This document shows, piece by piece, positions 11,981 to 64,000 of a DNA stretch of 64,000 bases. The stretch is taken from positions 42,284,001 to 42,348,000 of the forward strand of contig CM059446.1 of the NCBI GenBank assembly GCA_030390025.1, in the 5' to 3' direction. Within the stretch, counting starts at the first letter, position 1. Each line of letters begins with the position of its first letter. The translations under genes were made by a program, and so were the position numbers. This stretch comes from Squalus acanthias. Lineage: Eukaryota. Under the pieces are notes generated by a model. That model was not told where the DNA came from and searched no databases. It was given only the letters and a program-made list of their open reading frames with translations.

Positions 11981-12169
11981 CTAGTCCACTGATGGTATAA
12001 TGGGAATCTTGCATGCCGAGTCCAATTGGCCCAGTTTCCTGCTGACTTTCTTCCCTATAGAAGAGTCGATATCCCTGGATGTGCACACTGTTTTCCTCCG
12101 CTTGCTTCCACCTTACTGTAATGGTTGTGCAGTTCAATGGCTCTAAACGCAGCTCTGGGGCCAAGGGGA
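11981..12169 (-). CDS. PRTG: Protogenin exon (approx. exon 11), FN3-3 N-terminal part
   Basis: [66 protein letters not shown] acceptor, GTATGT donor, 189 bp. Confidence 0.96.
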
Positions 12170-15100: not shown

Positions 15101-16585
15101 CAGAAGGTGCAGAGTTTGGGATGGGACATTATAAAAGGATTTTCCTCTTCTCAAATCTACATGCTCTAATAAATCCACCTCCATGTATTTTCCAACAAAT
15201 TTGAATCTATTTAGCCACTTGCATTAAGGAAAATGTAAATGGACCGAAAGTACCAAAGCTAACAGACATATTTAATTCCCAAGTTGCAGCACTCTGCAAT
15301 AGTCCAGTGTGTCACTAAAAACTTTATACCTGTAGTGTATTTGCAAACATATGAAGTACAATTAGAATGACAATGCCATCAAAAGAGCTTCCCAGGGGTA
15401 TATTTAGTTCTAACTTATTGTTTGGACTAGGTTCTGAAACAGCAAGACAGATCATTCCTCAGAGAAGCCAAAGCTTGATATTGGCTTACTTTTTAAAAAA
15501 AAATCTAATTTCCGTTTTCTCCCTTCTCTCCTGAAGGCACGGACTTCTGCTGGGGTATATTTCCACAGGGAACCTCACCCAAGTGGCCACTCTTCATGGT
15601 TTGAGACGAGAGCGCAATTGTTGCTAGGCTATTTGCCTTGGGGGGGTATCACAGCCAAGCCCGATCTGGTCCTCTCTAAACACGTGCACCACATGCATGC
15701 ACACAATCCAGCTGGTGTCACTGGCTAGAAATTAGGAGCAGGAATCCTGACCTTTCCCCATCTTAGCCCAGGAGTACGAATGCCAATTTTAGCACCCTTG
15801 TTGGAACCTTGGTCGAGATCAGTTAACTCAACATACACCACAAATGGAACCTGCAGCCTTGTGTTGCGTATTGCTCAATTACATGTTACCATCGCTGACT
15901 GAGCCATTAGAGGTCTTCATGTACTGATCAAAACTAAATGGATTCTAGAGTATCGTAAATTATACTGTTCTCCACATTGCTAATAAAAGGAGCCTAGATG
16001 TATTTATCTAACAAGAAGATGGTATATACAATTAATGTTGGTGTTTGACAGTGATGAATGGAAAGTGGATCAGTGCTTTGTGAAGTCTGAGGTTGCAAAG
16101 AAGAGACACTCAATTGTGCAAGACTAAAGTTAAATTTCCCAAATGCAAAACTTAAGATTCATAGGTTGGACGATTTGCTTCTTTATACTTGGTCTATTAA
16201 ATCTGATATACTCAGGGAGCTATACACTCATAATGCTCCACAATCATATTTTAATCTAATTTAGTTATCAAGTCCAAATATCTGCAGACTGCATTGGATG
16301 TAGGCAGCAAAGGAACATTTTAAACTTGCATGATTGCTTCACATCTGACAAACCCTGTGACCAATCTCCACAACAGGTCCTACATGGTGGCAGCAGAGAG
16401 CCCCGGCAATGACCAATCTTTTCTGATCCTATTCTGTAATTCCAGGAAGATCAATATTTAATCGCTCTGTTTACTAAGATAGCGGTTATTCTGACTGTTA
16501 CGCTTTGCTAATAAAATACCAACCAGTTGGGATGCTGAACATTTTTCTTCTCTTTCTAAAAAAAACCAGACAGACAATAGATTAC

Positions 16586-16891
16586 CTTTTACACTGGTAG
16601 TTTTCGGGGTTCGGTGGGATGTCCATATTGAAGATTCTCCCCATCCTACTCTGGTTGCCGCAGAGATTCGTACAAAGTAAATGCTATCAGGCTCTACATC
16701 TTCAAGCAGATGTTCTGATTTGGTCCCTGGCAGCTCCACAAGGTGGATAGCACCCTCTGTGCTTTTGCGGTAGTAAACACGGTACGCAATAATACGTCCT
16801 CGCCTGAACTTGGCTGGAATGGGGAGCCACGAGATCAGGATGTTGGTCGGGCTGCGACTGGTCAAGCTGATTTCTGGCACTCTCAGAGGGA
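16586..16891 (-). CDS. PRTG: Protogenin exon (approx. exon 10), FN3-2
   Basis: [32 protein letters not shown]...[29 protein letters not shown] acceptor, GTAATC donor, 306 bp. Confidence 0.97.
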
Positions 16892-17826
16892 CTGTGGAAA
16901 TGGGGAATTAAGAAAGAAAAGGTATTTAAAATAAATCCACAGAAAACTGATTTTATTTTTTTAACACCACCAAATTTAATGACAAGAACATAGGAAACAC
17001 AGAAATTAAGCGTAAATACTACTGAATAGCAAGTTAAAAAACTTATTTTAACAAACTAATGCTGTGGATAGCATACAATTTAATGTGTGACTTATTAAAA
17101 TTGTTTCTTTATTTGTGTGTATATATAAAGTTATCTTTTATAAAGAAGTTAATCTATTGAATTCAAGTTATCACCATATACAATGCAACTGGTGAGAGTT
17201 TTAAAAGCTTACACTTCAATTATAGTGGATAGACTAAGAGATACACTAAGTCAGGACCAGAAACCAACAATATTCACTCGTCGTGCAAGCACTGGACAGC
17301 TGGTGTATGCATTTAACAGCTGGTTTCAGAAAATCTGACAAAAACAGATTTGGAACGAAGAAAATCATTTACATTTTTTTCTGGTAGCAGTTGGAAATAA
17401 ATAATTAATATTGCGCATCAGATTTATCAACTGGGGCGGGGGGGGCTTGAAAGTAAATGGAAGATGCAAGTCAAAAGTTGGTGACTTACATAAAATAAAG
17501 AAAGTAAACACCATCTGCACAACTCTCAAGCACTACAAGCATGAGTGATTTATGTTGCATAAATTAAGCTGTAATTATACTAAAAAATAGGAATTGGTCA
17601 AAATGATGATTAAAGGTGTTTAGGCACATTTTAGAAACAGGTGGTAAAAAGAAACTAATCCTGATTTTTTTTTAATAAATTCCGCCAATGGAGGAATAAA
17701 CCATGGGTACAACTTAAGCAAGCGCTGTACAAGTAGGAACTTTCGTGAGCCATTTATTATTATACATTTTCTGTATTACACAGAAGCCAATGTCTAAAAG
17801 CACTATCTCAGAATAGCTTTTCATAC

Positions 17827-17991
17827 CGTCTTCCAATGTGTACTGAATAACATGCTCCGACATTCGACTGGCTCCCATGGGCATGTACGCTACAATATAA
17901 AACGTGTAATTGCTGGCTGGCTCTAAATCATCAATAATGTAACGAGTTGTGTCATTCCCAATAACCACTTGATATTCCTCATTATTTAAAC
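17827..17991 (-). CDS. PRTG: Protogenin exon (approx. exon 9), FN3-1 C-terminal part
   Basis: [58 protein letters not shown] acceptor, GTATGA donor, 165 bp. Confidence 0.97.
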
Positions 17992-19156
17992 CTGGGGAAA
18001 GAAAAACCCGCTGTCAATTTGTGAGCCTGGGATAATTAACTTAGGCAGCCTGTTCCGGCGACACTTCTTTAGAGGTTAGCATGTGATAGAAAAATAACAC
18101 GTGAGCCGTCTAAGTATCCCTTAAAATGACTTACACTTTTCAGACTTTTGATATAATTTTGCTGCAAATAAACATTTTTTCCCCCCCCAATTTCCACTGG
18201 GGAAATGGGAGTCACACAATTCATGCTAAGAGTTGATCTTCCCATAATCAACTTCACCAGTACTTTGCTTCTTTAAAGCAAAACACTGCATTTTAAATAC
18301 AGCCAAAAGCAAAATTATTCCCAATTACATTTTCCCACATTCATGAATAAGCTTGATAGCCGCTTAATTTGCAAAACCTAAGAGGCCCATTCACAAGTAG
18401 TAATTACCGGCTAATAATGAATTTCCAAAGTCCTGATTTCTGACCTAGAAAACAAAATCCTTGAAGGAAAATTAAAGAGTCTTGTTACCCTGCTGAATAC
18501 TTCAACAGAACTCACGCTGGGGCTTAATGCAATAACTATAATGGAATACAAAGCAACCATTCGACTGCAATCTGCACTCCATAGCCAACACTTTAATGCC
18601 TTCAGAAAACTGGTGGTGCTGCCTGAACACACTCCACCACACACTTTAATTATACCTTCATGCATTTCTATACTCTCTGTTCTATGAACTCATAATAAAC
18701 ACCTTTCCCTTGAGAAGGTAAACCTTCTACCCAATTTTAATCATCTCAACAGATCACATTGTTTGTACAGAGAAGGCTGCTATTCCCATTTCATTAGAGA
18801 GGCTATTCTCTCTTTGTGACCTCTGCCCAGCAACAGAATATTAACAACAGATGGTCAACTTCTCACATTCCAATTAGACATTGGCAACGGAGAATGTCCA
18901 AGACTAAACAACAAAAAAAAGTGAAGAGGATGATACTTGCAGACTAGCTTTAAAACAAGCTACTTCATTTACACTTACAGATGCTTCTTCTGAAGTCCGA
19001 GTCAAGATGCACCTTGTAGGTTTACTGCATTAAACATTTCTTTCTTACCTGGCAGACAGCTAGAATTGTTTACTTTGAAGCTATCTACCGGCTGAATTAG
19101 AAAATGTGTTTGAGCAGCACAAGGTCAAAAGTGTACGAATAAAACTCGGGGCTCAC

Positions 19157-19404
19157 CTTCTGCTTTCATGTAATGGACTGAGTATGCGATTACTTTATCA
19201 GAATTGTACATGGGCCTTTCCCAAGACAGAAGAATCCCTGAACTCGACACCGTTTCTGCCTGGATGTTTCGAGGTGCGCTCGGCCTGTCCTCAGACATAA
19301 TAACAATCAGTCTGGCCACTGAAAGAACGGAGCCTTGTTGATTTTCAGCCACACACTGGTAAATGGCATCATCTTCGGGAATGATCTGGTTTATCACCAA
19401 TTTG
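19157..19404 (-). CDS. PRTG: Protogenin exon (approx. exon 8), end of Ig4 and start of FN3-1
   Basis: [84 protein letters not shown] acceptor, GTGAGC donor, 248 bp. Confidence 0.97.
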
Positions 19405-21166
19405 CTTAAAAATAAAAAAGAATCATTTGGTTGATTACCTGAATTTTCAAGCACATCAAATCTACTAATCTTTATTATCTGCAAGCAAATGCCGCTCTCT
19501 AATGGAACAACTTTACATTTGGCGAATGCAAATCTTTAAAAAAAAAAGGGGCCCATACTTTGTACATTAATAACTGGAAATGCCCGTAGGCAAGTTATAA
19601 CAACATGTCCAATTTACTAGGAACTGCCTCGAGTCTGCTGACTACGTAAACCTCATTTGTACAAGATTAATTCATTCCAAAGTCAATTCAATTCTAGGGG
19701 GGAGCTTCAAGTCAGAACCCTCAGACTAAAGTCATCTGGTAAAGGTATTCACTCAGTCAGTCATGACTTCTATTGGTATTACACAGCCTTCATGCAATGT
19801 AAACAAACGCACAAAGGGATGACAGTATACTTTGTGTCTGTGCCGTTGATCAGACAGGTAACAAAGCAGTTATGTCAGTTTACTGTACTGGGCAGATAAG
19901 TGTCTGCATCTGCAGTTTCTCGGCCTGCTGTTGATTGTGCGCGCTGTGCTCGAGTCAGGCCAGGTCCAGCTTCAGAGAGCACTTGTGGTTTTACAAAGCC
20001 ATAAACCCAACTCTTTAATAGGGCAGTCTGATGTCACAATTAACACTTAAAACTTAGTAACCAGTATGTTCTCTTTAGGTACTGCTCTGAGATTTGTAGT
20101 GCTTCCACTACTTTAGAACCTGGAGCTTTTAAAGCCATGCTCAGCAAGACAACAATAAAGACACTTGTAATATGCCAGGACCACAAGTGTAGCAGAAAGC
20201 AGTCACCAGAGCACCTACAAAAGGTAGCCTCATTCTGTGTCAGTTCACACTAGTGACAGCAAAACAGTGCAAAGCCCTCTTTTCAAAACTTAACTTTTTA
20301 AAGGTTTTTTAAAAAAAAAACCTCTGGCAATACAGGGGACCACATTTCAATTAAAAATAACTGGCTGGCCTATGACATTTCCTTCACTGGAAGAAAAAGA
20401 TCCAAGTCGGGACTCAGTAAGCAGTGCTCCGTGCGTGCTTTGCCCTCCCCCCACTCCACAATAATGCAAGTCAGTTAAGTGTAACCCCACAGCTCCCTGC
20501 CTGATCCGGTCCTCGCCCATCTACGCAACCCTTCCAAAAACAAAAACAGGAAGCCTAGCTCATTCTCCCCCTCCTACCCCAGGACACGGAGGTCAGCTGC
20601 ACCACTCCCACAGCCACCCCAGCAGACACGAGGGATTGAACCCGGATCCTTCCTGATATCCGTGGCTCAGGACCACACTATTTACCAACTGAGGCATCCG
20701 CCAGTTCAGTTGGAACTCCATGTCCTGGACACAGTTATACCAAGTCTCCTTGAAGTTCTAGTTTGAATGGCACTGTTATTTGTCATAGACCCACAATTGA
20801 ACTAAATACATTTGAAAATGCATCTTTAACTGTGTGTAAAGTGTAGTCACTAAAACGTATGCTGAATAATCCCAATTTAGAATTAACAATTCTGTGCAGG
20901 CCAGCAAGGCTCTATGGTCTTCAAGATCAATTCATTTATCAATGTAACTGTAAAAAGTTAGTTTGTTGGCTTTCTAGACCAAACTGTTGTTCAGAGTTCA
21001 AACAGAAACATGACTGGACAAAGAGCTGCATTTACCACCACAACCAAAATCAAGTGCATTTTCGAAAAACATTACAACATAATCACACTCAATTTCTTTC
21101 ATATTGAACATCTGCAAATAGGAGACAGAACTTTCAAAACAAAACTAAAAATAAATCAACGTGTAC

Positions 21167-21329
21167 CTGCTATACTGGACTTTGATACGTCCATTGGAGT
21201 GAATCCTTTGTCCATTCTTCAGCCAGCTAATTTTAGGTGTAGGAATACCTTCTGCCTGACACATAAACCTGGCCGTGCCAGCACGAGGCCTGGTCAGGCT
21301 CTCGGGCCACTCAACGAAAGAAGGTGGGG
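21167..21329 (-). CDS. PRTG: Protogenin exon (approx. exon 7), Ig4 N-terminal part
   Basis: Manual translation [54 protein letters not shown](S). TAG acceptor, GT donor, 163 bp. Not in the supplied ORF list on this strand. Confidence 0.94.
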
Positions 21330-21926
21330 CTATAAAACAACATTGGAAAACACTAGTAAGACTATATTCTTGTTTTCCACTGAAAAAGTGCCATGCATCT
21401 TGCCCGATAGATCAAGGAGCCAAGCCTAAACAATAAAAAATACCTCATGTTGTGAAGCACTCTCTCAGCAGCAAAACTAAGCACATCTTAAGCCAACCAG
21501 TCATGGATTGACATTGATAGAAGCCCCAATTGAGGGAGTGCAACATCCTTTGGTGAAAGAATCTCCCAGTCAGAGAGAATGATGGAAAATGATATCTGAA
21601 GCAACTTAAAATGCAAGGTCATTTGCATTTTCAAATCATGAGAAGCTGCTATGATGCCTACTTTTGGTTAGAGAGATCAGCACCAATGTTTACTCCACAG
21701 TACACAAGAAATTTTGTGCACCATGATGGATGAGCTGCTGCTCTACCCTGCAGTAATACTGTATACACACGCTACAACTTCTCATGTTACTCCAAACTTT
21801 AATTAAACAAAAAAAAAAAATAATTTGTTCCATAAATTCAGCAAAGCACTAAAAATATAAAAACTTGTCTTTGACTCTGGGATATGAAAACAAGTCCAGC
21901 CTAGAGTAATAGAATAAAAGTTTTCT

Positions 21927-22218
21927 ACATAAGAACATAAGAAATAGGAGCAGGAGTAGACCAATCGGCCCCTTGAGCCTGCTCCGCCATTCAATGAGAT
22001 CATGGCTGATCTGATCCAACCTCAACTCTAAAGAACACAAGAAGTAGGAGCAGGACCAGGCCACTCGGCCCCTGGGCCCGCTCCGCCACCCACAGGGCCT
22101 TGACCGATCCGAACTCAAACTCATGTCCAATTTCCAGCCGCTCCCCGTAACCCCCGATTCCCTTTACTTCTAGGAAACGGTCTATTTCTGTTTTAAATTT
22201 ATTTAATGAAGTAGCTTC
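21927..22218 (-). mobile_element. CR1-type 3' end with tandemly doubled terminal unit
   Basis: Two successive aagaacataagaaataggagcagga...ggcccc...gctccgcca units (~21927-22028 and ~22030-22130). Confidence 0.7.
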
Positions 22219-22964
22219 TCTGTCTGCAAATGTGTTTGGGTTGTATCCGTCCAGGTCCTACCAGGTGTGTTCCCTCAGCAAAGAACTGGTCATAATTAGG
22301 CACTAGCTAGCAGTCCAACTCAGTGGCCACAGGATGGTTGGTGCAGAAAATGGAAATCTCACATTAATGCAGTAGGGGTGCTCTCAAGTTAGGGCTAATG
22401 CACATTTTTGGGGCGAAGTGCAGATAGCTTTATTGTGCATCTGACCAGGCTATACCAGATCGCAAAGAGCTTAATGCCAACACCCTGTGCCCAAATTAGA
22501 TAAGCGTTTCATCTTGCAGCACTAACATGCCTCACCTTGATAATATTCATCGGGAAAAACAAAATTGAAAAAAAAGTTTAAACTCGTCTATTTACACCTT
22601 GTATTTCACATCTAAAATCAGGTACACAAGTGGATCAATAGGAGACTAAAAGGAATCCATGAGTGACCAGACCTGCGTTCAAAGCAGGAGAAATTCACTT
22701 GTGGACTCTGTCTAAACTACACATTTCTGTTCTTTTTAAAAAATACGTGGTTTTGTCTTTTACTTTGATTACCCACTAAGCTATTTACACAAAACAAGAT
22801 AAATCAGTGGCTCCTGTTAAATATTATCCCGCTGCTCACCTATCCCTTATGGAATGTCCACTGTATTCACTCACATTCTTCATGGGATAACAGTTCTATC
22901 TCGCTGCCTTTTAAAAGCTTTACCCTTTTTGTAAATAATTGTAAACAAAATACCATTTATTTAT

Positions 22965-23875
22965 GTCAGCTTGGCTTAGTTGCTAGCGCCCTCAATTGTG
23001 GGTCTGAGTACATAATCTAGGCTGCGACTTCGACTTAAGAGTGCTGCATTGTCAGAGGTACCACCCTTCAGATTTTCTAATGAATGTTTAAAAAGCCCAT
23101 GGGCACTATTCGAAAAAAAGTAGGGCGTTTTGCCTGGCCAATGTTCCTCCCTCAACCAATAGCACTGAAGAAAAAATATAGATTAACTGGCAATGTTCCC
23201 TTTAAGCTGCATGGCCACGCGCTCTGCAGCTCCCGGGCAGCCGGCTCACCGGCTTTTAAATAGGAAAAACCGCGCAGACGTGGTATTTTGAATCGGCCGC
23301 GCAGCCCCTTAAAAGGGCCACACTACTGCTACTATTTATATAGCACCTTTAATGTAGCAAAACGATACAAGGCGCTCCACAGGAGCGTTACTAAACAAAA
23401 TTTGACACCAAGCCACATATGATGACATTAGGGCAGATTGGTCAAAGAGGTAGATTTTAAGGAGTGTCTTAAAGAAGGAAAGAGGGGTAGAGAGCTTTAG
23501 GGAGGGAACTCCAGAGCTTAGGGCCTTGGCAGCTGAACTGAAGGCACGGCCGCCAATGGTTTGAGCGATTAAAATCGGGGATGCTCACAGGGCCAGAATT
23601 GGAGGAGCGCCGAGATCTCGGAGGTTTGTCGGGCTGGAGGAGATTACAGAGACAGGGAGGGGCGCGGCCTTGGAGGGATTTAAAAACAAGGATGAGAATT
23701 TTAAAATCGAGGCGCTGCTTAACCGTGAGCCAATGTAGGTCAGCGAACACAGGGGTGATGGATGAACGGGACTACATAAAAATGGTGACTGCACTTCAAA
23801 GCAATTCATTGCATGTGAAGTACTTTGGGTTGTTTCTGAAAGACAATTTCAATGCTATATAAATACAAGTTCTTT
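22965..23875. mobile_element. Nested cluster: DeuSINE (+) split by a small MITE-like element and an L2 fragment
   Basis: SINE head and core ~22965-23190, GC-rich imperfect inverted-repeat insert ~23192-23325, L2 3' end on the minus strand ~23330-23775, SINE tail ~23776-23875. Confidence 0.65.
23330..23775 (-). mobile_element. L2-clade LINE 3' fragment (ORF2 C-terminus and tail)
   Basis: ORF 23469..23750 LHWLTVKQRLDFKILILVFKSLQGRAPPCLCNLL resembles the L2 ORF2 C-terminal motif (LHWLP...RIxFKIL...APxYL). Confidence 0.8.
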
Positions 23876-24173
23876 ATAATTTGATTTTACGGAAATAACA
23901 TGCAAGGAACATATTTTTTTTTTTAAAAGAATAACACCTGCATGCATGAATAATTTATCAAAATAATGAAACATTGCTTCTTCAAATCACTTGCAACTGA
24001 AGACATTACAAGTATGGACAGCATGAATGTCAGAACTTGGTTAGAAGGTGTCCCTTGTTACAATTGGTTTTGTTGGCTTCCTAGGACAGCAGCAAGCACC
24101 TTCAAATTGTACTAACTATTGGAATCGCACATTAATTCTAGAGTCCTTAGCCTAAACAGGTTTGTTATCTTAC

Positions 24174-24332
24174 CCAACACAGTAAGCATAGCTGTGGCTA
24201 CAGTGTAATTGCGGGTGCCTGGTGTGGTGGCTCGACACACATATATTCCGGCATGCTGCACCTTCACATCCGATATCATCAAATTCCCATTCCCCAGAAC
24301 CCGTGAATTGAAAACATCAATAGATCGGTGAT
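24174..24332 (-). CDS. PRTG: Protogenin exon (approx. exon 6), Ig3 C-terminal half
   Basis: [53 protein letters not shown], highly PRTG-like. AAG acceptor, GTAAGA donor, 159 bp. Confidence 0.96.
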
Positions 24333-24561
24333 CTTTTTGGAAAAAGCAGATATTTGCATCAACCAACCATTAAAATTAGATCAATATCATTCAGAAAAAC
24401 AAACTCCCAACGGTTAAAATGGACTAAAATGATCGGCATTAAAAAACAGGAAAAAGGAAGTGTCTTAAATAAAAGTAATTTACAGTCCATTTAACAACAG
24501 TGTGTTGAAAACAGTGTCGAGGTTGTATTTGTTAGATCAAAAAGTCACGGTATTTTAAAAC

Positions 24562-24624
24562 TGTCTGTAATTCCTGGTTTAAGTATTGCTTTGTCTGTAA
24601 TTCCTGGTTCAAGTATTGTTTTGT
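24562..24624 (+). repeat. 30-bp tandem duplication
   Basis: tgtctgtaattcctggtttaagtattgctt followed by tgtctgtaattcctggttcaagtattgttt (2 mismatches). Confidence 0.9.
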
Positions 24625-24639
24625 GGTTTCTAAGTATCA

Positions 24640-24873
<234 letters not shown>

Positions 24874-25054
24874 TTACTACAGAACCCGAAACAAATACCC
24901 CATCAAGTTTAACTAAACTAGCGAAACCCAAATAAAAATGAAAATGAAACGGCGTCTTGCACACAGGATTTCTCGTAATAACCAAAGGAAGTAATACAGG
25001 AGTGGACGAGTTTGTTTTTAAACATGTCAAAGTGACGCAAGTTTCCAAAAAGCA

Positions 25055-25229
25055 AAAGCAAGGCTGAGAGATGGATAGATTTTTGGACTCCAGGGGATTC
25101 GAGGGATACGGAGATGGGGTGGGATAGTGGAGTTGAGGTCGAAGATCAGCCATGATCTTATTGAATGGCGGAGCAGGCTCGAGGGGCCGTATGGCCTGCT
25201 CCTGCTCTTATTTCTTATGTTCTTATGTT
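25055..25229 (+). mobile_element. CR1 LINE 3' end
   Basis: gatcagccatgatcttattgaatggcggagcaggctcgaggggccgtatggcctgctcctgctc followed by (ttcttatg)n. Confidence 0.8.
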
Positions 25230-25669
25230 ACTTCAACTTAAATGCAGCTAAAGCTATTAACTGCGGGTACTAATAGATGCATTTTGTTTTAGCACCACTA
25301 CCAGATTCATAAAAATTAGAAAGCAGCAGCAAGATCCTCAATAAATGGTGAAAGGAAAACCTCACATCCAGTCAAACCAAACGATGTGATGAGTGATTCT
25401 ATTTGAAACAACCTCTCTTTTCCCTTTAATATCAACAATAGAATCCTGTATGTTAAAAGCTAGCGGCAATGTACAGTTAACGGCATGTGGCATACAGTGA
25501 CATTTCAAGCATTAACTTTATCTTGAACCTAATGAAGCAAGCCTTGCTGGCAATTTGATCATGACTGTGGAAGATTTGCCACATTAATTGCTGACTTGAT
25601 CCCAACCATCCATTCAAACCCCAAGGACGCCCCTGTGAAGATAGCGATTCCTTATGCTATCCTGCTCCT

Positions 25670-26120
25670 AAACATAGAAACATAGAATCTAGGAGCAGGA
25701 GTAGGCCATTCGGCCCGTCGAGCCTGCTCCACCATTCAATACGATCATGGCTGATCATCCAAATCCAGTACCCTGTCCCTGCTTTAATCCCCACAGTACA
25801 CATATCCCACCCTACCCCCGTAACCCCACGTATTTAATTCCCCCTAACATATCCCATCCTATCCCCATAACCCCACCCTATCCCCATAACCCCACATATT
25901 TAATCCCCCCCTAACACTAAGGGTCAATTTATCATAGCCAAATCAACCTCACCCGCACATTTTTGGACTGTGGGAGGAAACCGGAGCACCCGGAGGAAAC
26001 CCACGCAGACACGGGGAGAATGTGCAAACTCCACACAGACAGTCACCCGAGGTCAGATTCGAACCCGGGTCCCTGGCGCTGTGAGACACCAGTGCTAACC
26101 ACTATGCCACCGTGTTGCCC
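25670..26120 (-). mobile_element. HE1-like V-SINE with CR1-type tail
   Basis: Minus strand head gggcaacacggtggcatagtggttagcac, B-box ggttcgaatc and V-domain gtgtggagtttgcacattctccccgtgtctgcgtgggtttcctccgggtgctccggtttcctcccacagtccaaa. Internal short tandem repeats (~25800-25915) and a CR1-like tail ending in (ttctatgt)n. Confidence 0.85.
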
Positions 26121-26437
26121 AGAGATGAAATCAGCACCATCTTAATCACAAAATTCAGTCAATTTCTTCAAAGGCATAATTTGTCTCAATATTTTGAAAA
26201 TATGACTGAACAGCAATAACATACCTGCATGTTTATTACAACAGGGAGTTGAGGATGGACTGATCAGCTCAACCACCCTGCACTTTTAGCATTTCCATGA
26301 CAAAACACAACTTGCATTCTCATCCGTTAAGTCATTTCCCTTGCACAGAATGCACGTGCACACAGCTTTTAGATTAGATGTAGTGACCGTGTGTTGAATG
26401 GGCAGCCTAACTGAACCAATTACTGGACATTGTCAGT

Positions 26438-26901
26438 GTCAGCCGTGGCTCAGTTGGTAGCACACTCGCCTCTGAGTCAGCAGGTTGTGGGTTCAAGTCC
26501 CACTTCAGGGACTTGAGCACAAAAATCTAGGCTGACACTCCAGTGCCGTGCTGAGGGAGTGCTGTACTGTCGGAGGTGCCGTTTTTCAGATGAGATTTCA
26601 CGCTAAACCGAGGCCCTGTCTGCTCTCTCAGGTGGACGTAAAAGATTCCATGGCACTATTTCGAAGCAGGGGAGTTATCCCCGGTGTCCTGGCCAATATT
26701 TCTCCCTCAATCAACATAACAAAAACAGATTATCTGGTCATTATCACATTGCCTGTTTGTGGGAGCTTGCTGTGCGCAAATTGGCTGCCGCGTTTCCCAC
26801 ATTACAACAGTGACTTCACTCAAAAAAGTACTTCATTGGCTGTAAAGCGCTTTGAGACGTCTGGTGGTCGTGAAAGGCGCTATATAAAGTCTATTTTTCT
26901 T
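26438..26901 (+). mobile_element. Full-length tRNA-derived DeuSINE (SacSINE1-like)
   Basis: A-box gtggctcagttggtag and B-box ggttcaagtcc. Core ctgtcggaggtgccgt...aaaccgaggccc resembles the recalled Deu domain. Tail gtgaaaggcgctatataaa. Confidence 0.85.
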
Positions 26902-26933
26902 TGTTCAGGAAGAAAGACATCTCAACTGTGTAC

Positions 26934-27067
26934 CTTGAACAACGGTTAAAATGGCTTCCGCACTCCTGCGCCTATTTGCAACGTTGGTTGCAACACAACG
27001 GTACTGTCCAGCGTGCCGTTCCTCAACACCATAGATCTGAAGGACTCCAGTTGGTAGAGCAGTTATC
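26934..27067 (-). CDS. PRTG: Protogenin exon (approx. exon 4), Ig2 C-terminal half
   Basis: [44 protein letters not shown] within ORF 26905..27159. AG/GT boundaries, 134 bp, phase continues from the previous exon. Confidence 0.95.
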
Positions 27068-27342
27068 CTGAGAAGAGAAAGAGATATTTTTTTTTTAATA
27101 TAAGAATTTGTTTTAAAAGTTTGAAATGTGTGGATTGCTAGCAAAAATGTAGTACACACTGAAGTGACAACAGTAATAATTCAGTGCACCACAGTAACAC
27201 TAGTAACAAATCATTGCATTGCAGTAAGACTGGTAACAATTTAATGCAAAGAAACAGAAAGAAATATCTGCATAATTAAGACTATTATATTCAAACTACT
27301 CTGTGCATGTTGGTGTAAAGCTTTCCCTCTCAAATATAATAC

Positions 27343-27487
27343 CTGTCAGTAGCTAGCGGCAGTGCTGTTCGGTTGAATTCCCAGGTTATGATCGGTGGAG
27401 GATTTGCATGTATCTTGCAGATAAACCGGGCTACTTCGCCTTCATTGACCACTGTATGGGTTGGCTGAACTTCAAATGGAGACATAC
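27343..27487 (-). CDS. PRTG: Protogenin internal exon (approx. exon 3), Ig domain 2 N-terminal half
   Basis: Manual translation (x)[47 protein letters not shown](R) matches the recalled human PRTG segment ISAFEVQP...[11 protein letters not shown]. Minus-strand AG acceptor at 27488-89 and GT donor at 27341-42; 145 bp. Not in the supplied ORF list. Confidence 0.93.
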
Positions 27488-30400
27488 CTGAGAATTAAAA
27501 GGGACATTGCTATGGTTAGCCACTCACAGACTAACAGCTTGGACACAACTAGAAAGTAAACCCCTCCGGTGAAGGAAAACTCCAATTCATAGGAAGAAAC
27601 TGAAAACACTTCCTACAAGTTAAAAAGGTGATTATTCGACAGTACCAACAGAGCGCAGACAGCAATAAATCACAATGCAATGACAACCCCAAAGGTTAAC
27701 CTTCGGAATGATTCGAACTAACAACATTCATGCAACTTTTCCTTAGTTACGCATCGAGACAGATCCCACAAATTACTTTTCAAGTAGAAGAAATTGTTTT
27801 GAGTATGATGTCTCCCCTACAACCTTTAAGCTAGGTATATAGTTGGTCATAGGGTCGAACCATCTACAAAACTGCTTATACACATTGGCAATCACAATAG
27901 GGATTTTAGTGAATGATTCTCAACAGGAAACAACAAAAAATAATGCAGATCTATGGAATACTTCTCAGTTTCGAGAACAGGGAGATTCTTTCCTGAAATA
28001 TTTAGTAAAATCTGTGGCGCCTAAGGACTCAGTGTCGCATTAAAATAAAATATTAAACATTAACTGGAAGCATTCTCTCATTTCCACTTCAATTAATACT
28101 CGTTAAATAAGTTGAAATTCCCAAACTACGACCTGTATGTACTAACTGAGTTCATTCCCATTATCAAAATATCAGCTGAAATTTCTGTTCACAATTTTTG
28201 CTCAGCTTGTATTGCTTGCAATACAAGCAAGTGCTTTCTATCAGACTAAATTTCCAGCCTGTGAATTTCCTTTAACAGGATCCTGAAGTTACTTTCGAGC
28301 AAGAAAAGAAAACCAACATTCTACACACACACACATTTTGTAGAACATTACTCCTACAAAAGCACTGCCAGATACAGTTTAGCAAAGCAATCTTCCACTA
28401 TAATTTAATGCATGTAAGAAATTATGCAACTGAAAATCCTTACTAATGTTTTCCGTGAATTCCTAATCAATTCTGCAGCAACTCGCTCATTTAGTTAACA
28501 TGATGGACTGTATCAATGTGAAACTGACTTTTTCCAATACAAGTGGTTACCATCTCACAGATGTTTTTGCCAGCAGTAATTGAAAGCAACCTGGTGAGGA
28601 GAGTCATTTCTCACACTCCAGGATCTGAAAGAAACTCCAAACTCTTTCAGGACTGCACAGTTGCAGATGACAACACTTCGTTCAGGATAAGTGATCATTC
28701 TGAGCCTCACCATGCAACCTACACAAGCATCGCTAACAATCAGAAAAACATTACTGCTCATAAATATTTCACACCTCTGGAAATTTGTAACTCATCAATA
28801 TGTAAAAAGGAATTAAATCTAAGTTCTCGTGTCATAAACAAAGACATGTTTGTAGATCAATAGAAACCTTTAAAGATTAAAGAAACCTAAAACCTAATCA
28901 ATGGGTAAAAATACAGATTGCAATCAATTAATAATCAACCAGCCCATAGGGGGTCCAATAAATGTCAGAGATCAATCATGCTTCCTAGTGAAAGATGCAC
29001 ACAATATACCAATAGAAATGAAAATGCCGATCCCACCTCACACTCAGCATTTCCAGAACACCATCTGCACTGTGTAAAATTCAACTTCAACAAAAATATA
29101 GTTACAGCAGTTTGTGAGGCAGCTTCCTCAATAGCTCAAGGAGCTTATCCAGTGAGGAGTCACACCATACAGACCAGCAGGTCCTCAGTTTGTGTTGAGT
29201 TACTGAGGGGAGCAATTAGGGGCATTACAATTGGCCCCAGCACTCGTCAAGTCAGGATTCCCGTTCCCGATCACCGTGCAGTGTCCCTGCTGGAAGCGCA
29301 TGTCTAAACAATAAAGGAGCAGCTGTGATACCTCAGTGGTTGAACAGCTTACTGACAATCACTGTGAAAACACACACAACTGTGCAATGGTCACTTGGGC
29401 AAGGTACTTGAGGGTGACTGGCATCTGTGAAATTGTACCCCAAACATGGGAGTTCATGCCATCAGCACATGAGGGGGGGGGGGGGGGGAGGCAATTGGCC
29501 AAAAAAAACTTCATGACTTAAAAACATCCAGTTAATTCAATGTACCACTTAACAGTCTTGGTTCTTGGTGAATCCAACAAAGTGACAATTAAGTCTAAAA
29601 GAGGGATTAGTGAATCATTCCCAATGTCTGAAGTACAAAATAAATCTCTCTTTCATGTCAGGAACATACTACCCAATTTCAAGGGTAACTTAAGCAAATC
29701 AGAATCAAAGTTGAAAACCAAATCTCCTTCAATCTATATTTTTTATGCATTTAAGTCACGTTCATTTCAGTGTTTAGCCAAGAATTTATGTTGAGAACCT
29801 AATGGCTTTTCACGCTTTCTTGTGAGTTGCTAATGCGCCTGATTTTACTGTGAATGTAAAATGCAATCTGCTTTTGTCTTAGCACAATGCCACTGATGCA
29901 CTCTTGCTTAACTAACAAAAGTGCCTTGTCAGATTCTCTTACTATAACACAATTAGCTTCCTGTAAGATGAAAGCCAAGAACTAGCCAATACTAATCCCA
30001 TTTACAATCAGTTAAGGTCGTCCATATGTAGCAGCATTTTACACCACCACTGCGAGAGGCGCTGGGGCTTGGATCGCTCTGCACACTTCAGGGTTTACGC
30101 ACATGCTCCAGAAGAGCAGATGTTGGATGAGATGTACAGCATAGAAATCAATACAAGGATTTCAATGAGAAATGAGATACTTCTCTACTTTCACAACAAA
30201 CACTCTGAATTTGCACATTAACAGATGAGAAATACAGTGGGTAATTTGAGCAGGCCAAGCTGAAGAAGTTATTCTGCACACACAAAAAATTTTATGCTCC
30301 TAATTTGCCCAAGATACTGTGTATAAAGTAACAGCAATTTATAACGTGTGTACAATACATGCAGAACGCTTCCTTGCCCTCAATTAAAAAACACCACTTT

Positions 30401-41100: not shown

Positions 41101-42857
41101 GAGATCACAGCATGAAAACGAAAACTGAAGCCACGACACAAGATTTTTTTTTAAATTAAAAACACTTTTATCAAGTGCTGCAAAGTCTACACACTATGAT
41201 GGCCGCACGGTACATCACAGAACACAAAGCAGTGACATATACATGCACAGAGGATATTAAGACAGTTCTACACATTTGTGCATTGATAATGACCAAACCT
41301 CTCTATTTGGCAGGAGGCTTAGGCAGAGCAAAGTCACTACCGCTGCTGCTTTTAACCAAGAGGTCGATTCATAAGATAACTCCACCGCTACCGTTTGTCG
41401 AGCATACATATCTCAGTTGATCAATAACCATCACTGCTCTCTGAAGTGCATCATTTCATTTCCAACTGCAGCAAAGCATTGCTTTGACTCCATGGTAATT
41501 CAGGCCCGAGGGTAGAGGACTGTTTTTAAGTAAGCAGAAGCTTGAATAACCAAACGAAGCGAAGGTTGAACCTATTGGCAAAGCCACAATTGTTCAAGTG
41601 ACAGTTTGGAATGCTGCCAAAAATTTCACTGACCCAAACCCCTGGTAATAACCTCTATAATGGATTTCATTTCCAAGACATAACCCTTCAATCAACACAG
41701 TAATCCACTTTGTGGTTTACAAATCAAAACAGTTAAAACACAGTCGTTACTTCCTACAGCTGTCAAAATCTATTACTATACTATTTAGTTCTTTTCAGGA
41801 TTCTCTCCCAGTTACGGTCTTGCATAAGGCCCAGAAGAGAGGACAAACTTGTAGCTGCAGAAAGGGGATTCAGTTTCGCTCTATTACTTTTACACAAACT
41901 GACATCAGTTTCCAGAAAACCATTAACAAAAGAAAGTAAATTCCAAAAGGGGTAGTTTACAAAATAATTCACCTGCTTCCGATACTTGTGATTACAGAAT
42001 TAAAAACTGCCAATTTCTTAAATTAAACTTTCCTGCCCTCAGAAGCATCAACTGCGGTGATACATTTTTTTTTAAGTTTTGCTTTGATAAATTGCCTCTT
42101 TTTAACATAATAAAAAATAATTAAAACTTTGACTTGTGTTCTCTTGATTTGTTCAAGCTGAACAAATAAATTTTTCTGTACAACTCTTAAACCATTCATC
42201 GTCCACTGGCAAATGACTTCTTTCCAGACAGTTTTAAATTTCTTACTGTGATTCCTAAAAAGCTTTTTACAATCCAAAACAGTGAAACCGTCTATAGCAA
42301 CCACCTAGTGGACTCTTAATGTAGGTTTAATGCTGAATCGTTTACATTATTGGAATGACTATCAAATGATCTCCCTGTATAGGGCTTCTTGTTGTTTAAA
42401 TACATTTGCCCGTTTCAAAAATCATCTTTGATATCTTGTGTATTACAGATTTATTGATTATAATTATTAGACATATTATTGCAAATGTTCACGAATGAAG
42501 CCTCTACAATACTTGATCACCTTTCCAAACAGTACTCTCTCTATTAACAGCAGCAAGCTCAAACTGTTCCAAAGCAGAAACATTAGAACATAAAGCATCA
42601 AGCACTCCCTCATGCTTTGTTTTCTGCACTGCGTTGATCCTATCAGTTAGGCCCGCTCAAATCCAGTGTACAATTGCCATCAACTTCTTGTACTTTTTAT
42701 TAACTTCCATCTTACACAAAGAAAAGTGTACATTTCCAGAAGAGTTTTGTGTTACAAGTGGGCAAGCCAATGCCTGTCTAGTTCAGAGTTGGTACTGAAC
42801 TGGCATTTCCTCCTAGAAAGTAAAATAATTACTTGCGTCAAACATTAACTTGGAACA

Positions 42858-43075
42858 AAAGCAAAATACTGCGGATGCTAGAAATCCGAAATAAAAACAG
42901 AAAATGCTGGAAATACTCAGCAGGTCGGGCAGCATCTGTGGAGAGAGAAACAGAGTTAACGTTTCAGGTTGATGTTCTGACGAAAGGTGATCGACCTGAA
43001 ACGTTAACTCTGTTTCTCTCTCCACAGATGCTGCCCGACCTGCTGAGTATTTCCAGCATTTTCTGTGTTTATTTA
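42858..43075. mobile_element. Palindromic hammerhead-bearing mini-element, family A, opposite orientation
   Basis: 85-bp inverted arms (42889-42973 / 42990-43074) with the tail on the left. Candidate TSD ttggaaca at 42850-57 and 43077-84. Plus-strand motif GTT-CTGACGA...GAAACGTT-AAC at 42974-43008. Confidence 0.82.
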
Positions 43076-45896: not shown

Positions 45897-46032
45897 CAGT
45901 AACTCTACCTGAGGAAGGGGCGACAGCTCCGAAAGCTTGTAATTTTAAATAAATCTGTTGGACTATAACCTGGTGTTGTGCGACTTCTCATTTTTGTCCA
46001 CCCCAGTCCAACACTGGCATCTCCGCATCATG
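45897..46032 (+). mobile_element. Single-arm family B hammerhead mini-element with tail
   Basis: TAC-CTGAGGA-A-GGGGC gaca GCTCC-GAAAGCTT-GTA followed by the same body and tail as 62281-62410. Perfect 12-bp TSD acattaaaccca at 45885-96 and 46033-44. Confidence 0.85.
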
Positions 46033-59763: not shown

Positions 59764-59858
59764 CTGACGAAAGGTCATCGACCTGAAACGTTAACTCTGT
59801 TTCTCTCTTCACAGATGCTGCCTGACCTGCTGAGTGTCTCCAGCATTTTCTGTTTTTA
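59764..59858 (+). mobile_element. Single-arm family A hammerhead mini-element
   Basis: Begins exactly at CTGACGAAAGGTCATCGACCTGAAACGTTAAC. 9-bp direct repeat tattaaata at 59755-63 and 59859-67. Confidence 0.8.
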
Positions 59859-61979
59859 TATTAAATAAATTATATTACTTTTCATGTCATATATATGAGA
59901 TCAGAGGAAAATGCAGTAGAACACATACATAAATTGTTCTTCAAGTATTTTTCCCAAAGAGCTTCCCCAGATGTGGAACTGAGCTTTGTGAACCAGAAAG
60001 TCGGCCTGTCTGACGAGTTCGTTCGTGATCATACCCAGGGCAATGGTAGCAGGCAGCAACCCTGGGTAAGGGAGGATAGGGGAGGGGGAAAAGAAGTTGC
60101 CTCTCCTGATTGTCATCCGGTGACAAAAATGCACGTGTGGATTTTGCACTAGAATAGGATCAGGATCACATGAGATGTCACAGTCGAATAGCCTACCAGC
60201 TCATACATAAAGAATGCCCATTGGGAGAGGTACCAGAGGACAGACAGAGCCCATGGGACTGTTTCCAAACCTTCATGAGGAGTAGAAAACTGGAGACAGG
60301 ATTTTTTTTAAGTTTCTAAAGCAGAGGCCAATTTGGTCAAAATAATTCACATCATGAGATCCACATTCCTACGCTAATTGACATTAATTGTGGTTAATAT
60401 AATTTTAAGATAGATTTTTTGTACCACTTGCACCTTAATATAGAAGGACCACAATAACTGTAGCCAGCACATCGGGAACAGAGTGTCACTTTAAATAATG
60501 GTGGAAGTTGGGATTCGTTGTTACTCACTATGAAACAGAGTACGATAACTTTCATTAGCACTGTGCCCTCCTGCTCCCATTCATCAAACACTCTGACCAC
60601 AGCCTTTGCATTTAATCAGTGCTTTGAAGTAATTTAATGCTTTGCATGTTTAGAACCAAACAAAGAAGTTTCTACTTAATTAATATTTTTTCTATGAATT
60701 CATTAGTAGCCAGATTCCAATATGCAGGAAGCCGATCACTAAAAAGCAGCTCGATAGTCCGCTGAATGATTTAACAAAGCTTGACGTTTCCAGTTTTTTG
60801 CCCATGGCTGAATGACATACACAAGCTTTATACATAAAATGATGAATGCCTGTCATTGTGTAGATAAACTCAATGACTGCTATTGAAGTGAGGCAGTGAT
60901 AACACAAGTTTTAGCCTAGGGGCTATGTTACACTTATAACGCCAACAATGGAAAGGGTTTTCTGAGTGAAAACCGCAATTTAAAAACGGGTACAGTAACT
61001 CATCAAATTATTTGTCTGTTAAGTCAATGTTATGCAGCGCTCAAAAGTGGTGGTGATGTAACCATAAATGCTAGTTTGGGAAATATACAGTTGATGCCAT
61101 AATTAATACCCTTTTAACCCCCATCTTCAGATGCCTCACTTTTTTTTGCCAAAATGTCAGCATTCTAAACGGAAGCAATTTTTCCTGGCGAGGGCAAAAG
61201 GTTACACTGATTAAATGTCAATAACTGAGATTCACAGTAACCTGATAGCCCAAGGCTACGAAAAAATAGCCAGGCTACTAAATTGTAATTCTTGGGTATC
61301 CTGCTGGCTACCTTTTCTATTCATACGAAGACTGCTGCAGGAACTAGATTGCCATATGACAAAACCCACGCTAAAATGCATCAGATTTTTTTTTAACCTT
61401 TTTAACAAAATCAACAAAGGGAGAAAGTCTGAACAATGTATCTATATAGTTCATTGGAGGGCACTACCAGGCCGCTTGGTGAGCTGATAATGCTGATCAA
61501 TAATAAGTCAGATTGGACCTCCCCAAAATGAACAGACATTGCCAGTATTGTTTAGTTAAAATCTAAACAATACTGATGGAAAAAGGGAGTAATGTGGTGG
61601 CATCAGATATCACTTGATTATCATTTTTACTGTCAAACTGTAAAAATTGATGGGACACCCACTGGTCCAACACCAACTAAACTCTCCAACCTTTGTGAAT
61701 TTTGTCATTACTGGTGAAAATGAGTATGGCTCACTCTTTTTTAAATGTGGGTTTAATATCAAGGACTCCCAAGTCAGATACAGCAAGCTTATATACAGGG
61801 TAAACTGCTTAACACAACCTAACTAGACTATATTTACTGCATTTGTTGAAATTTCCATTTCCTAGTCTACCCACCTTCTTGGCCTCTGGGGTAAATTCAG
61901 CAGTAAATCTTCAGTCACACTCAAGCATAAGCTGGGCCGTTACGTGCTACAGACTTGCGCCTATAGAAGCTGGGAGCAC

Positions 61980-62110: not shown

Positions 62111-62240
62111 ACAGGCTGGATTCCAAAATAAAGCCAACCCACTCCTCAAATGAGATTTCAATCTTCCCGTCTCCTGTTTTTTTTTTAAGAAGTGAGAAGT
62201 TGCACAACACCAGGTTATAGTCCAACAGTTTTATTTGAAA

Positions 62241-62278
62241 TCACAAGCTTTCAGAGCGGCTGCTCCTTCATCAGGTGA
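62241..62278 (-). ncRNA. Minimal type I hammerhead ribozyme motif (family B, opposite strand)
   Basis: Minus strand reads TCAC-CTGATGA-A-GGAGC agcc GCTCT-GAAAGCTT-GTGA, with one G-U wobble in stem II. Confidence 0.75.
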
Positions 62279-62280
62279 CT

Positions 62281-62318
62281 TCACCTGACGAAGGAGCAGC
62301 CGCTCCGAAAGCTTGTGA
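62281..62318 (+). ncRNA. Minimal type I hammerhead ribozyme motif (family B)
   Basis: TCAC-CTGACGA-A-GGAGC agcc GCTCC-GAAAGCTT-GTGA. Stem I TCAC/GTGA, 5-bp stem II, palindromic AAGCTT stem III. Confidence 0.8.
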
Positions 62319-63865
62319 TTTCAAATAAAACTGTTGGACTATAACCTGGTGTTGTGCGACTTCTCACTTTTGTCCACCCCTGTCCAACACCGGCATCTCC
62401 GCATCATGGCTGGTTTTTTTTGAAAGCACTGAATTGTGCTCTGGTACATTTGTACAGGTACCATCAGCCCTCTGGTACCTTGCCCAAATTGCCATCCTTG
62501 ATGTAAAAGCCTATACAGCAAGTGTATTTGCCAGGAGGCTTTTAGAGCCACACCGATCCACTCTGGGGGGCGGCAGAGGGACAATATCTAACGCCCCTCC
62601 CTCGTCCAAGGCATTGAGTGCAACTGCAGTCCCATAACTGTTAGCGGAGCAGTGAGCAGCTAATGCAATACAACTATGGACTAAACCAGTGATCAGGCAC
62701 AGCATTCACCCACTCTTGTAGGTTTGCTACATGCGTTATTCACACTGAATACAACTTTTTGGGCTGAACGAATACCAGCTGGTGATAGCACAGCTTCAGC
62801 GATACATGAGTCCCTGTTCATTTAATTGATTTAGCATTATTCCATTATATATAAAACCCAATTAAGCCAGAATAATGCACCGTTCTAACCACATTACACA
62901 CATCACACACAAAGTAGTTCTATAAACAGTCCTTCTCCCATAAAGCTTAAAACTATCCATAGCTAAAACTACCTTCGAAAACTGGATACTTCAGCCTCTC
63001 CAGAGTTCATTTTCTTTCTGGATATATTGTGCAAGACTTGCTTTTTATTTTGCATTTCTTAAAAACTTGTGAAAAACCATTTGTAAATGACACTGCTTTG
63101 AATAGTCAACATTAATCTCCCTTCAGGCACAGTGTTTTGTTAAGTTCTCAATGGCAAAGTGAAGACTTTTCTGGAGGGTACCAAAATATTCAGAGCCAGA
63201 ACCACTGTGAGAAATGGTCATAAAAGGTTTTGTTATTATCCCAAACAAATCCGGGTTAAAAATGGATAATCTTAATGTTTCCACATGAAGCACTGCAAGC
63301 GATTATAAAGAATGCAACTCTTTAAAAAAAACTGAAAACATTACTGGGGCGGATATCTTTAATATAAAGGGTTATCCCTTCCTCAAGGTTAGGTTGAAAA
63401 AAAGGTCAACTTCTGCACTTCCTCACTCCAGCTGAACCTCTCCTCCCCCCTTTTAACAAGATGGTGCACCTACAGGACTCGTCACTGAACAGCTCTGCAG
63501 AAATAACACCAAGCAGCATCTTTTCTGGGTCTCAATGCTAAAACAGAGGTGGGTAAGCCAAGAAACTTCAGTACCATATACTGAGGATCCATAGCAGATG
63601 TTAGCTGAACCACTCATTTATCTACATGGGAAGGGGGGCAGAGGTAGGACTGCACTGTAGGTATTTCCCCCTACTTCTGTGACTTAGAGTTCAAATTCAA
63701 TACAATGAAGGTCTCCTCTGTCTGGTGGCTATGAGGTCTAATATGAAATGATTGAGCAATTTCAATCCAGTTTCTATTGGCATGGAAAAATGTAACACTG
63801 GTGAAGTAAAGTTATGCTGATAGAGTTAGATGAGGAAGGATGGGAGGAAGTTCAAGTGGAGTACA

Positions 63866-63927: not shown

Positions 63928-63941
63928 AAGGCTGCTCTTTT

Positions 63942-64000
63942 AAAATTGAGAAGTCGCACAACACCAGGTTATAGTCCAACAGCTTTATTTGAAATCACAA
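63942..64000 (-). mobile_element. Family B mini-element arm cut off by the window end
   Basis: tgagaagtcgcacaacaccaggttatagtccaacagctttatttgaaatcacaa matches the left arm at 62193-62246. Confidence 0.8.

Follow-up and report, generated by a model that had tools for sequence, protein, structure and literature searches.

The window analyzed here, a stretch of 64,000 nucleotides of Squalus acanthias DNA, carries a palindrome that is almost certainly a promoterless stub of a Penelope-like element (PLE), made up of the hammerhead-bearing 5' UTR of that element and a tail-less inverted copy of it. Such stubs were likely built at insertion from two cDNAs, one on each of the opposite target strands, that would have been copied separately from capped sense RNA. 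The palindrome combines a known Penelope insertion geometry with a known ribozyme type and does not found a new element class. What is new concerns the mechanism, in that junction statistics make the origin of the Penelope inverted repeats testable. With tens of thousands of young copies that carry diagnostic variants, the shark genome offers a natural experiment on the insertion step.

The two arms (62190-62278 and 62281-62369; 89 nt each and 97% complementary) enclose a 2-nt spacer, CT, which confirms the inverted arms described in the initial annotation. Three arm mismatches are present (62201, 62253, and 62270), every one of CpG type and in the left arm, in support of the young insertion that had been proposed. 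The predicted hairpin has a free energy of -162.8 kcal/mol (z -25) and none of 200 shuffled sequences was equally stable. Parent positions are numbered from the A of an Inr-like TCACTTC (+1), which places the ATG at +128. On this scale the right arm of the window stub is +1 to +133 and the left arm is +4 to +91 inverted, both having the same haplotype. The direct arm (62278-62369, plus strand) is the parent 5' UTR from the predicted transcription start in the Inr-like TCACTTC, and the G just before it (62277, plus strand) is a probable cap-templated base as well as microhomology common to the left arm. The tail of about 40 bp (62370-62411, plus strand) is carried by the right arm only, as first reported, and ends at the start codon of the parent (ATG at 62406-62408). 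Its outer end would be reverse transcriptase (RT) start site 2, and that of the tail-less inverted arm (62190-62278, minus strand) would be RT start site 1. The start codon had been overlooked, as had the flanks, which resemble a degenerate, T-rich target-site duplication (TSD). The left copy (62174-62189, plus strand) matches the right copy (62410-62426, plus strand) imperfectly, and the latter overlaps the tail by 2 nt. The TATA box, about 30 nt upstream of +1 in the parent, is absent from the window stub.

Two further copies of the same family (family B) were found in the window. One is a single tailed arm of another subfamily (45899-46032, plus strand; stem I TAC/GTA) with a 12-bp TSD, and the other is a solo tail-less arm (63938-64000, minus strand) that runs from site 1 to about -3 and extends to about 64037, past the window end. 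Copies of another family, A, lie at 1062-1299, 42855-43074, and 59764-59859 and have the geometry of family B; one form is a symmetric palindrome, a second an asymmetric palindrome in which one arm is trimmed, and the third a solo arm, and stem III is of the AACGTT type. Family A looked denser than family B in random 10-kb samples.

The palindrome is not a chance structure, since in a genome scan with the window element as query all 40 scored candidates (the best 40 of 2408) were near-full-length sister copies of 96-100% identity. The genome-wide copy count suggested in the initial annotation, done with a 30-nt tail pattern, gave 35,284 exact matches in the 3.7-Gb genome vs 0 for the reversed control, and the suggested linkage to an RT plus GIY-YIG ORF was found. 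The start of this ORF had 543 exact matches genome-wide, about 1.5% of the tail count. Boundaries were scored in 96 copies for which the tail was the only selection criterion, within the first 9 Mb of contig C1 (97 of 100 listed sites were retrieved). Note that most of the sampled loci overall lie within the first 60 Mb of one chromosome, that the best-hit loci L001-L030 are biased towards the query and were left out of headline frequencies, and that the arm concordance figures rest on about 100 pairs. An inverted copy was present within 480 nt in 67 of the 96 tail-selected copies; 52 of the 96 were the short form with an inverted copy, and 32 reached into or past the TATA region. Tailed arms ended at +124 to +139 in 94/96 copies (the lower bound being forced by the search pattern) and inverted arms at +86 to +96 in 59/67. 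Among 111 5' ends downstream of -25, 57 fell within -5 to +8 and 5 within -24 to -6. TSDs of sister palindromes were 12-13 bp long in 62/85 loci, only loci with a match of at least 10 bp being counted, and the dyad symmetry of the target sites gave r values of 0.45 over 39 12-mers and 0.10 over 23 13-mers. In the flanks of L002-L030 and L081-L170, several insertions were seen in one short AT-rich stretch of apparent CR1/L2-type LINEs, and similar TSDs therefore recur at unrelated loci.

The parent element was recovered from loci that extend beyond the stub. Among 30 tail-selected loci, 5 extended upstream via a common TATA-containing region and 3 ran from the tail ATG into the ORF. Locus L062 has the structure pLTR-ORF-pLTR and, like a tandem array, L235 (G000:C2:211213586-211223022), carries the pLTR found in the stub, and L061 and L063 have the classical inverted-plus-direct pLTR form. 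The array contains at least four units of 3,138 bp, and both fully fetched units carry an uninterrupted ORF of 892 aa with a match to RVT_1 (E 2.7e-8). The endonuclease was recognized by alignment of residues 789-855 with the Pfam GIY-YIG stretch, 806-885, of P0063; the Pfam GIY-YIG profile gave no direct match on the shark ORF, and a PDB sequence search with the RT part of the parent protein gave 0 hits. Among named proteins, those most similar to the parent protein are from sharks (93-97% identity in Heptranchias perlo and 73-87% in Scyliorhinus and Chiloscyllium). The translation of the parent ORF contains the CCHH motif described in PMC8557442, and the RT-EN linker has a C-x4-C-x2-C just before the endonuclease; the part of PMC8557442 used here lists the CCHH and linker cysteine motifs for Neptune/Nematis-type elements. 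The first T of the TATA lies 30-34 nt above +1 in 26/26 long reference copies. The RT plus GIY-YIG ORF, the tandem units forming pLTRs, the inverted 5'-truncated copy, the tail at one end, and the TSD are together those of an EN+ PLE, and the parent pLTR and ORF thus bear out the Penelope-like origin with an inverted tail-less pLTR that the initial annotation had put forward.

The 3' UTR of the family B parent (on the minus strand of L062 just after the ORF stop, and also in L061 and L063) contains a degenerate hammerhead pLTR like that of family A (64% over 137 nt, E 6e-7), which the long inverted arms include. In its hammerhead A9 and the GAAA box are altered and stem II is retained. This arrangement suggests that the family B parent replaced its pLTR and kept the old one.

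Other class assignments were rejected. A MITE or other DNA transposon with TIRs, the case that the initial annotation had named as contrary to its reading, is ruled out by the unpaired tail of about 40 bp at one end and by the RT plus GIY-YIG partner in the parent ORF. For a SINE-like unit a fixed master structure and an internal promoter were sought; the 50 loci had 22 centre forms, and in the parent the TATA is located upstream, outside the stub. For a non-LTR retrozyme the feature sought was head-to-tail short repeats with a hammerhead per unit; in the 96-copy sample the short copies were head-to-head or solo, and the only regular tandems seen had 3.1-kb units.

The inner ends of the stubs carry a signature in the base before +1. 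In parent-type long arms this base was C or T in 57/57 cases (loci that were neither best hits nor cut-site loci), and among arms genome-wide it was G in 3,679 vs A in 555. At the +37 junction, G was found in only 12 of the 100 matches listed. Reverse transcriptases add C opposite a cap. Of 59 loci selected for the G, 50 were paired and 9 were solo. The G was no continuation of the partner arm in 18 of the 50 pairs; in the remaining 32 it can also be read as partner-arm sequence. These ends likely fit run-off at the 5' end of a capped RNA, as judged from the junction sequences. One further junction recurred at L245, L246, L252, and L254, where TG precedes +1 as two extra bases and the partner arm is truncated near +20; the 2 nt may have been added without a template, or the start may lie 2 nt further upstream.

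These ends bear on the published account of head-to-head Penelope palindromes, which Arkhipova et al. 2013 explained by self-priming on an antisense template; in the portion of that paper used here (PMC3846280) a sense template was left open. For the shark stubs we give antisense self-priming only a slight chance. At the inner ends the sequence breaks off at the Inr of the sense strand, 30 nt downstream of the TATA, and carries an extra G, which points to capped sense RNA; the outer ends match the two-site sense priming shown in vitro for an Anolis element (PMC11167929).

The centre of the palindrome is variable: the 50 paired G-selected loci had 22 centre forms and the form in the window accounted for 10 of them. 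As centres differ from copy to copy, the mirror was built at each insertion, and we are confident that the palindrome arises at insertion and does not spread as a unit. The initial annotation had proposed a remnant or a non-autonomous mini-retroelement, and a palindromic unit of this kind (SINE- or retrozyme-like), transcribed and mobilized as a whole with the hammerheads releasing it from host transcripts, would account for the many near-identical copies with the same centre (29 loci in one set) and for the TSDs that flank the whole palindrome. However, the same-centre copies were selected by their likeness to the query, the TATA is absent, some tails continue into the first codons of the ORF, tandem monomers were not seen, and the hammerheads are predicted to be sequestered. 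We therefore regard such a unit as very unlikely, and its spread as a whole is not supported, given the varying centres and the absence of a promoter.

Whether one template or two gave rise to the mirror can be asked of the arm pairs. Among 50 adjacent pairs the tail-less arm reached at least 3 nt further 5' in 25, the tailed arm did so in 16, and the two were level (within 2 nt) in 9. In 13 of the 50 the tail-less arm had +1 to +3 and the tailed arm started at +4 or later. The complete, G-bearing arm was the tail-less one in 16 pairs and the tailed one in 30 (4 were uncalled; n = 50). Loop II length differed between the arms in 7 of 27 unbiased pairs (one of which, L139, is a nested locus), whereas indels elsewhere were found in 0/27; site +18 differed in 4 of the 27, always together with loop II. 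Among G-selected pairs loop II differed in 10/35, two of the differences being of CpG type, and in the L031-L060 set loop II indels between arms were found in 0/12. Linked haplotype differences at multiple sites separated the arms of L126, L128, L167, L233, and L280, and at L233 both arms are complete to +1 plus G yet have two different haplotypes. Site 1 can also be used alone, as L062 and the copy at 63938 end there without a tail.

A single-cDNA alternative is that the tail-primed cDNA reaches the 5' end of the RNA, snaps back on 1-6 bp, and copies itself to site 1; mixed arms would then be due to subsequent gene conversion or to an error hot spot in loop II, and deletions at a later time would account for odd centres. 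The window copy alone (tailed arm from +1, tail-less arm from +4, same haplotype) fits this fold-back and two cDNAs equally, and the addition of a cap C would allow its centre to be read as an AAGT loop closed by G-C. Most arm pairs are also concordant (41/44 at +52), and the 9/50 near-symmetric centres, several of them at self-complementary (palindromic) hexamers, fit either fold-back or later deletion of the centre. However, a copy cannot hold bases that its template lacks, and the tail-less arm is the longer 5' in half of the pairs, including those in which it alone has +1 to +3. The arms are thus not nested: the tail has no template in a tail-less cDNA, nor has +1 in a tailed cDNA that is truncated. 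Tail-less arms also insert alone, and the linked multi-site haplotype differences speak against a self-copy. Fold-back is thus an unlikely source of the stubs, and two separate cDNAs per palindrome remain the probable one.

Whether the two cDNAs come from different RNA molecules is a further question. The two alleles at site +52 occur at about equal frequency, so that random pairing would give discordance in about half of the pairs, yet only 3/44 were discordant; clearly different templates are thus a minority, and our rough estimate of their share is 15-25% of events. Loop II may be an error hot spot, or ectopic gene conversion among the tens of thousands of copies may give mixed arms. We nevertheless lean towards two RNA molecules as the rule.

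Each arm of the palindrome carries a minimal hammerhead motif, one per strand as the initial annotation had described. The right-arm motif (62281-62318, plus strand) is a minimal type I hammerhead with an intact core, composed of TCAC (62281-62284), CTGACGA (62285-62291), a bulged A, stem II GGAGC/GCTCC, GAAA (62307-62310), AAGCTT (62309-62314), and GTGA (62315-62318). Its stem III, AGCU, is self-complementary (dimer type) and the predicted cut lies between 62314 and 62315. The left-arm motif (62241-62278, minus strand, host-gene sense; predicted cut between 62245 and 62244) is as the right one except for CTGATGA, giving a CUGAUGA core, and GCTCT, the CpG transition at 62253 having turned the G10.1-C11.1 pair into G-U. 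This pair is called highly conserved in a passage of PMC4209133. In the comparison with Rfam that the initial annotation had suggested, no hammerhead was found at the gathering score or at E <= 10, only hairpin look-alikes below the cut-off, and the models may not cover minimal PLE forms. The hammerhead call thus rests on motif, stem pairing, and context.

In sister copies N7 can be any of the four bases and loop II is 3-10 nt long, and stems I and II remain paired; conservation of the core is partly built in, as the motif filter fixed most core bases. An alignment was made of 35 rows hand-picked from 58 arms with the motif plus two window copies. In it 97.3% of stem cells were paired and 12 cells were changed on both sides, a result reached by 0/500 shuffles. 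The stems therefore covary across copies, the behavior that the initial annotation had looked to for a real ribozyme, although the support is modest because the double changes amount to two events inherited by subfamilies. The pattern of changes suggests selection on the hammerhead in source elements. In subfamilies seen at loci L090, L100, L121, L132, L134, L141, L142, and L160 the core has U4 changed to C (CCGACGA), and these were still amplified.

In the full element, the predicted pair probability of stem II is about 1e-17 for the right hammerhead and 1e-19 for the left, and forcing stem II to form costs 41 and 48 kcal/mol, respectively, the latter in host-gene sense. Both stub hammerheads are thus predicted by folding to be sequestered and off, since transcription of either strand reaches the antisense arm earlier than the hammerhead. 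The idea that the long hairpin keeps the motif switched off gains support from these predictions, whereas the companion idea, that transcripts from either strand would contain a meaningful self-cleaving motif, is not supported, as the antisense arm comes first and the gene-sense motif has C11.1 changed to U. We propose from the motif data that the hammerheads are functional parts of the parent RNA. Genome-wide, junctions at the predicted hammerhead cut site (+37) numbered 186 vs 45 and 68 at two control positions, an excess of about 3.4-3.6-fold after base-composition correction that is confounded by GT/GTGA microhomology. Of 30 such loci inspected, 29 were true junctions, and for 8 of the 30 microhomology (GT) to a complete partner arm accounts for the junction; paired truncation near +37 was seen in 9/30 and resembles a general tendency of arms to end close together. 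PLE hammerheads reportedly cleave as dimers, according to a paper of 2017.

Taken together, the junctions suggest the following course of insertion. The TATA/Inr promoter of the parent would start a capped RNA at +1, and the RT/GIY-YIG protein would cut both target strands 12-13 bp apart, the spacing being that of the observed TSDs. Of the two target 3' ends, one would prime at the start codon (site 2, about +129) and the other at about +90 (site 1), so that the tail spans the distance between these sites; the end positions are observed, and priming there is likely by analogy to the system of PMC11167929. Priming at the first copy of these sites would give cDNAs of about 90 and 130 nt that run off at the cap, often with an added C. 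The cDNA ends would then be joined via 0-6 nt of microhomology with trimming, so that the centre varies between copies, as observed. The arm haplotypes suggest that different RNA molecules served as templates in at least a minority of events. A stub lacking the promoter is likely a dead end.

A more speculative extension, which we consider possible but rather doubtful, is a dimeric PLE particle that holds two capped sense RNAs, one primed per RT start site on the opposite target strands, with the RNAs paired by the conserved, self-complementary AGCU stem III of the minimal hammerhead. Such an RNA-RNA contact would be likened to the dimer initiation site of retroviral genomes. If true, the inverted pLTRs, the tails on one side, and the survival of a ribozyme that cleaves weakly and only as a dimer would have a single explanation, and the shark stubs would be its genomic record.

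The host gene of the window stub is an Ig/FN3 gene on the minus strand, whose first and second Ig exons are separated by the 45.7-kb intron in which the stub lies. Six exons of this gene are in the window, at 11976-27494 on the minus strand; the first Ig exon is at 73146-73517 of the extended region, 9 kb past the window end, with a CpG-rich patch near 77 kb. The intronic position given in the initial annotation stands, the Ig and FN3 exons being confirmed, and the name PRTG, proposed there, is a putative one that fits this gene. A co-opted regulatory RNA, in which the hairpin or ribozyme affects processing of the PRTG-like pre-mRNA, would draw on this position and on the 89 bp of dsRNA that the pre-mRNA would contain, a possible ADAR or Dicer substrate. 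However, the stub is one of tens of thousands of copies and shows ordinary CpG decay, the hammerhead in host-gene sense is the left one, which lost G10.1-C11.1, and opening the hairpin on that strand has the high cost given above. Such co-option is thus highly improbable, and a host role for the stub is unlikely.

Two sense cDNAs that run to the cap, sometimes on different RNA molecules, are therefore the favored origin of the palindromes, and this can be tested with the in vitro Anolis system. Thousands of 90-bp intronic hairpins are also a likely source of dsRNA, and annotation can easily mistake such stubs for MITEs or miRNA precursors.

Among known systems, L1 twin priming also has both target strands priming reverse transcription, with an inversion as the result, and two non-overlapping parts of one RNA are copied. 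In contrast, the shark cDNAs overlap almost fully and a palindrome results. The literature search covered few subscription journals, with Repbase and Dfam outside its scope, and within it no title or opening of an abstract described the shark family, a cap signature, or two-template formation; the family may already be catalogued. Inverted tail-less pLTRs, TATA/Inr sequences, tails, and minimal hammerheads have been published (PMC3846280, PMC8557442, and PMC4209133), and in canonical EN+ PLE insertions a 5'-truncated pLTR lies adjacent in inverted orientation and the tail is 30-40 bp long (PMC3846280 and PMC8557442). The origin of the Penelope tandem and inverted structures is called undefined in a passage of PMC8557442.

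The metazoan PLE minimal type I hammerheads treated in the relevant part of PMC4209133 share with the shark motifs the CUGANGA core, the bulge after position 9, G10.1-C11.1, the palindromic 15.2-16.2, the short stem I, and the variable loop II, and opposite-strand pairs were noted there. Unlike those motifs, the shark pair stands back to back in one perfect hairpin and for this reason cannot form a tandem dimer. Non-LTR retrozymes, from what was available of bioRxiv 10.64898/2026.07.22.740005, are likewise short and non-coding, carry a type I hammerhead, and are related to PLE pLTRs; their repeats are arranged head to tail, each with an active unit, whereas the shark element is a head-to-head, two-arm stub.

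A close counterpart is Poseidon PAc of Anolis carolinensis. In the portion of Frangieh et al. (PMC11167929) on which we rely, the PLE protein cuts and extends both target strands in vitro, RT starts at two sites that bound the tail, a dimer is predicted, and the pLTR contains a hammerhead. In PAc, RT starts lie 111-118 nt inside the ORF, which begins within the hammerhead, whereas the shark sites are at about +90 and at the start codon, and unlike PAc the shark ORF has an RT-EN linker cysteine motif of the Neptune/Nematis type. The same portion of that paper held no account of the origin of the inverted arm and no two-template test. Another close counterpart is Pen2a of Adineta vaga, which in the consulted text of PMC3846280 (scheme in PMC8557442) has a head-to-head inverted tail-less pLTR, a tail to the ORF start, a TATA plus TCACT Inr in the pLTR, a target duplication, and a single RT plus GIY-YIG ORF. 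Unlike in the Pen2a type, a main product in the shark is the form without an ORF that is cut off at the transcription start (52/96 sampled copies being short with an inverted copy); it reaches a very high copy number, and the shark junctions point to two sense cDNAs rather than to antisense self-priming.
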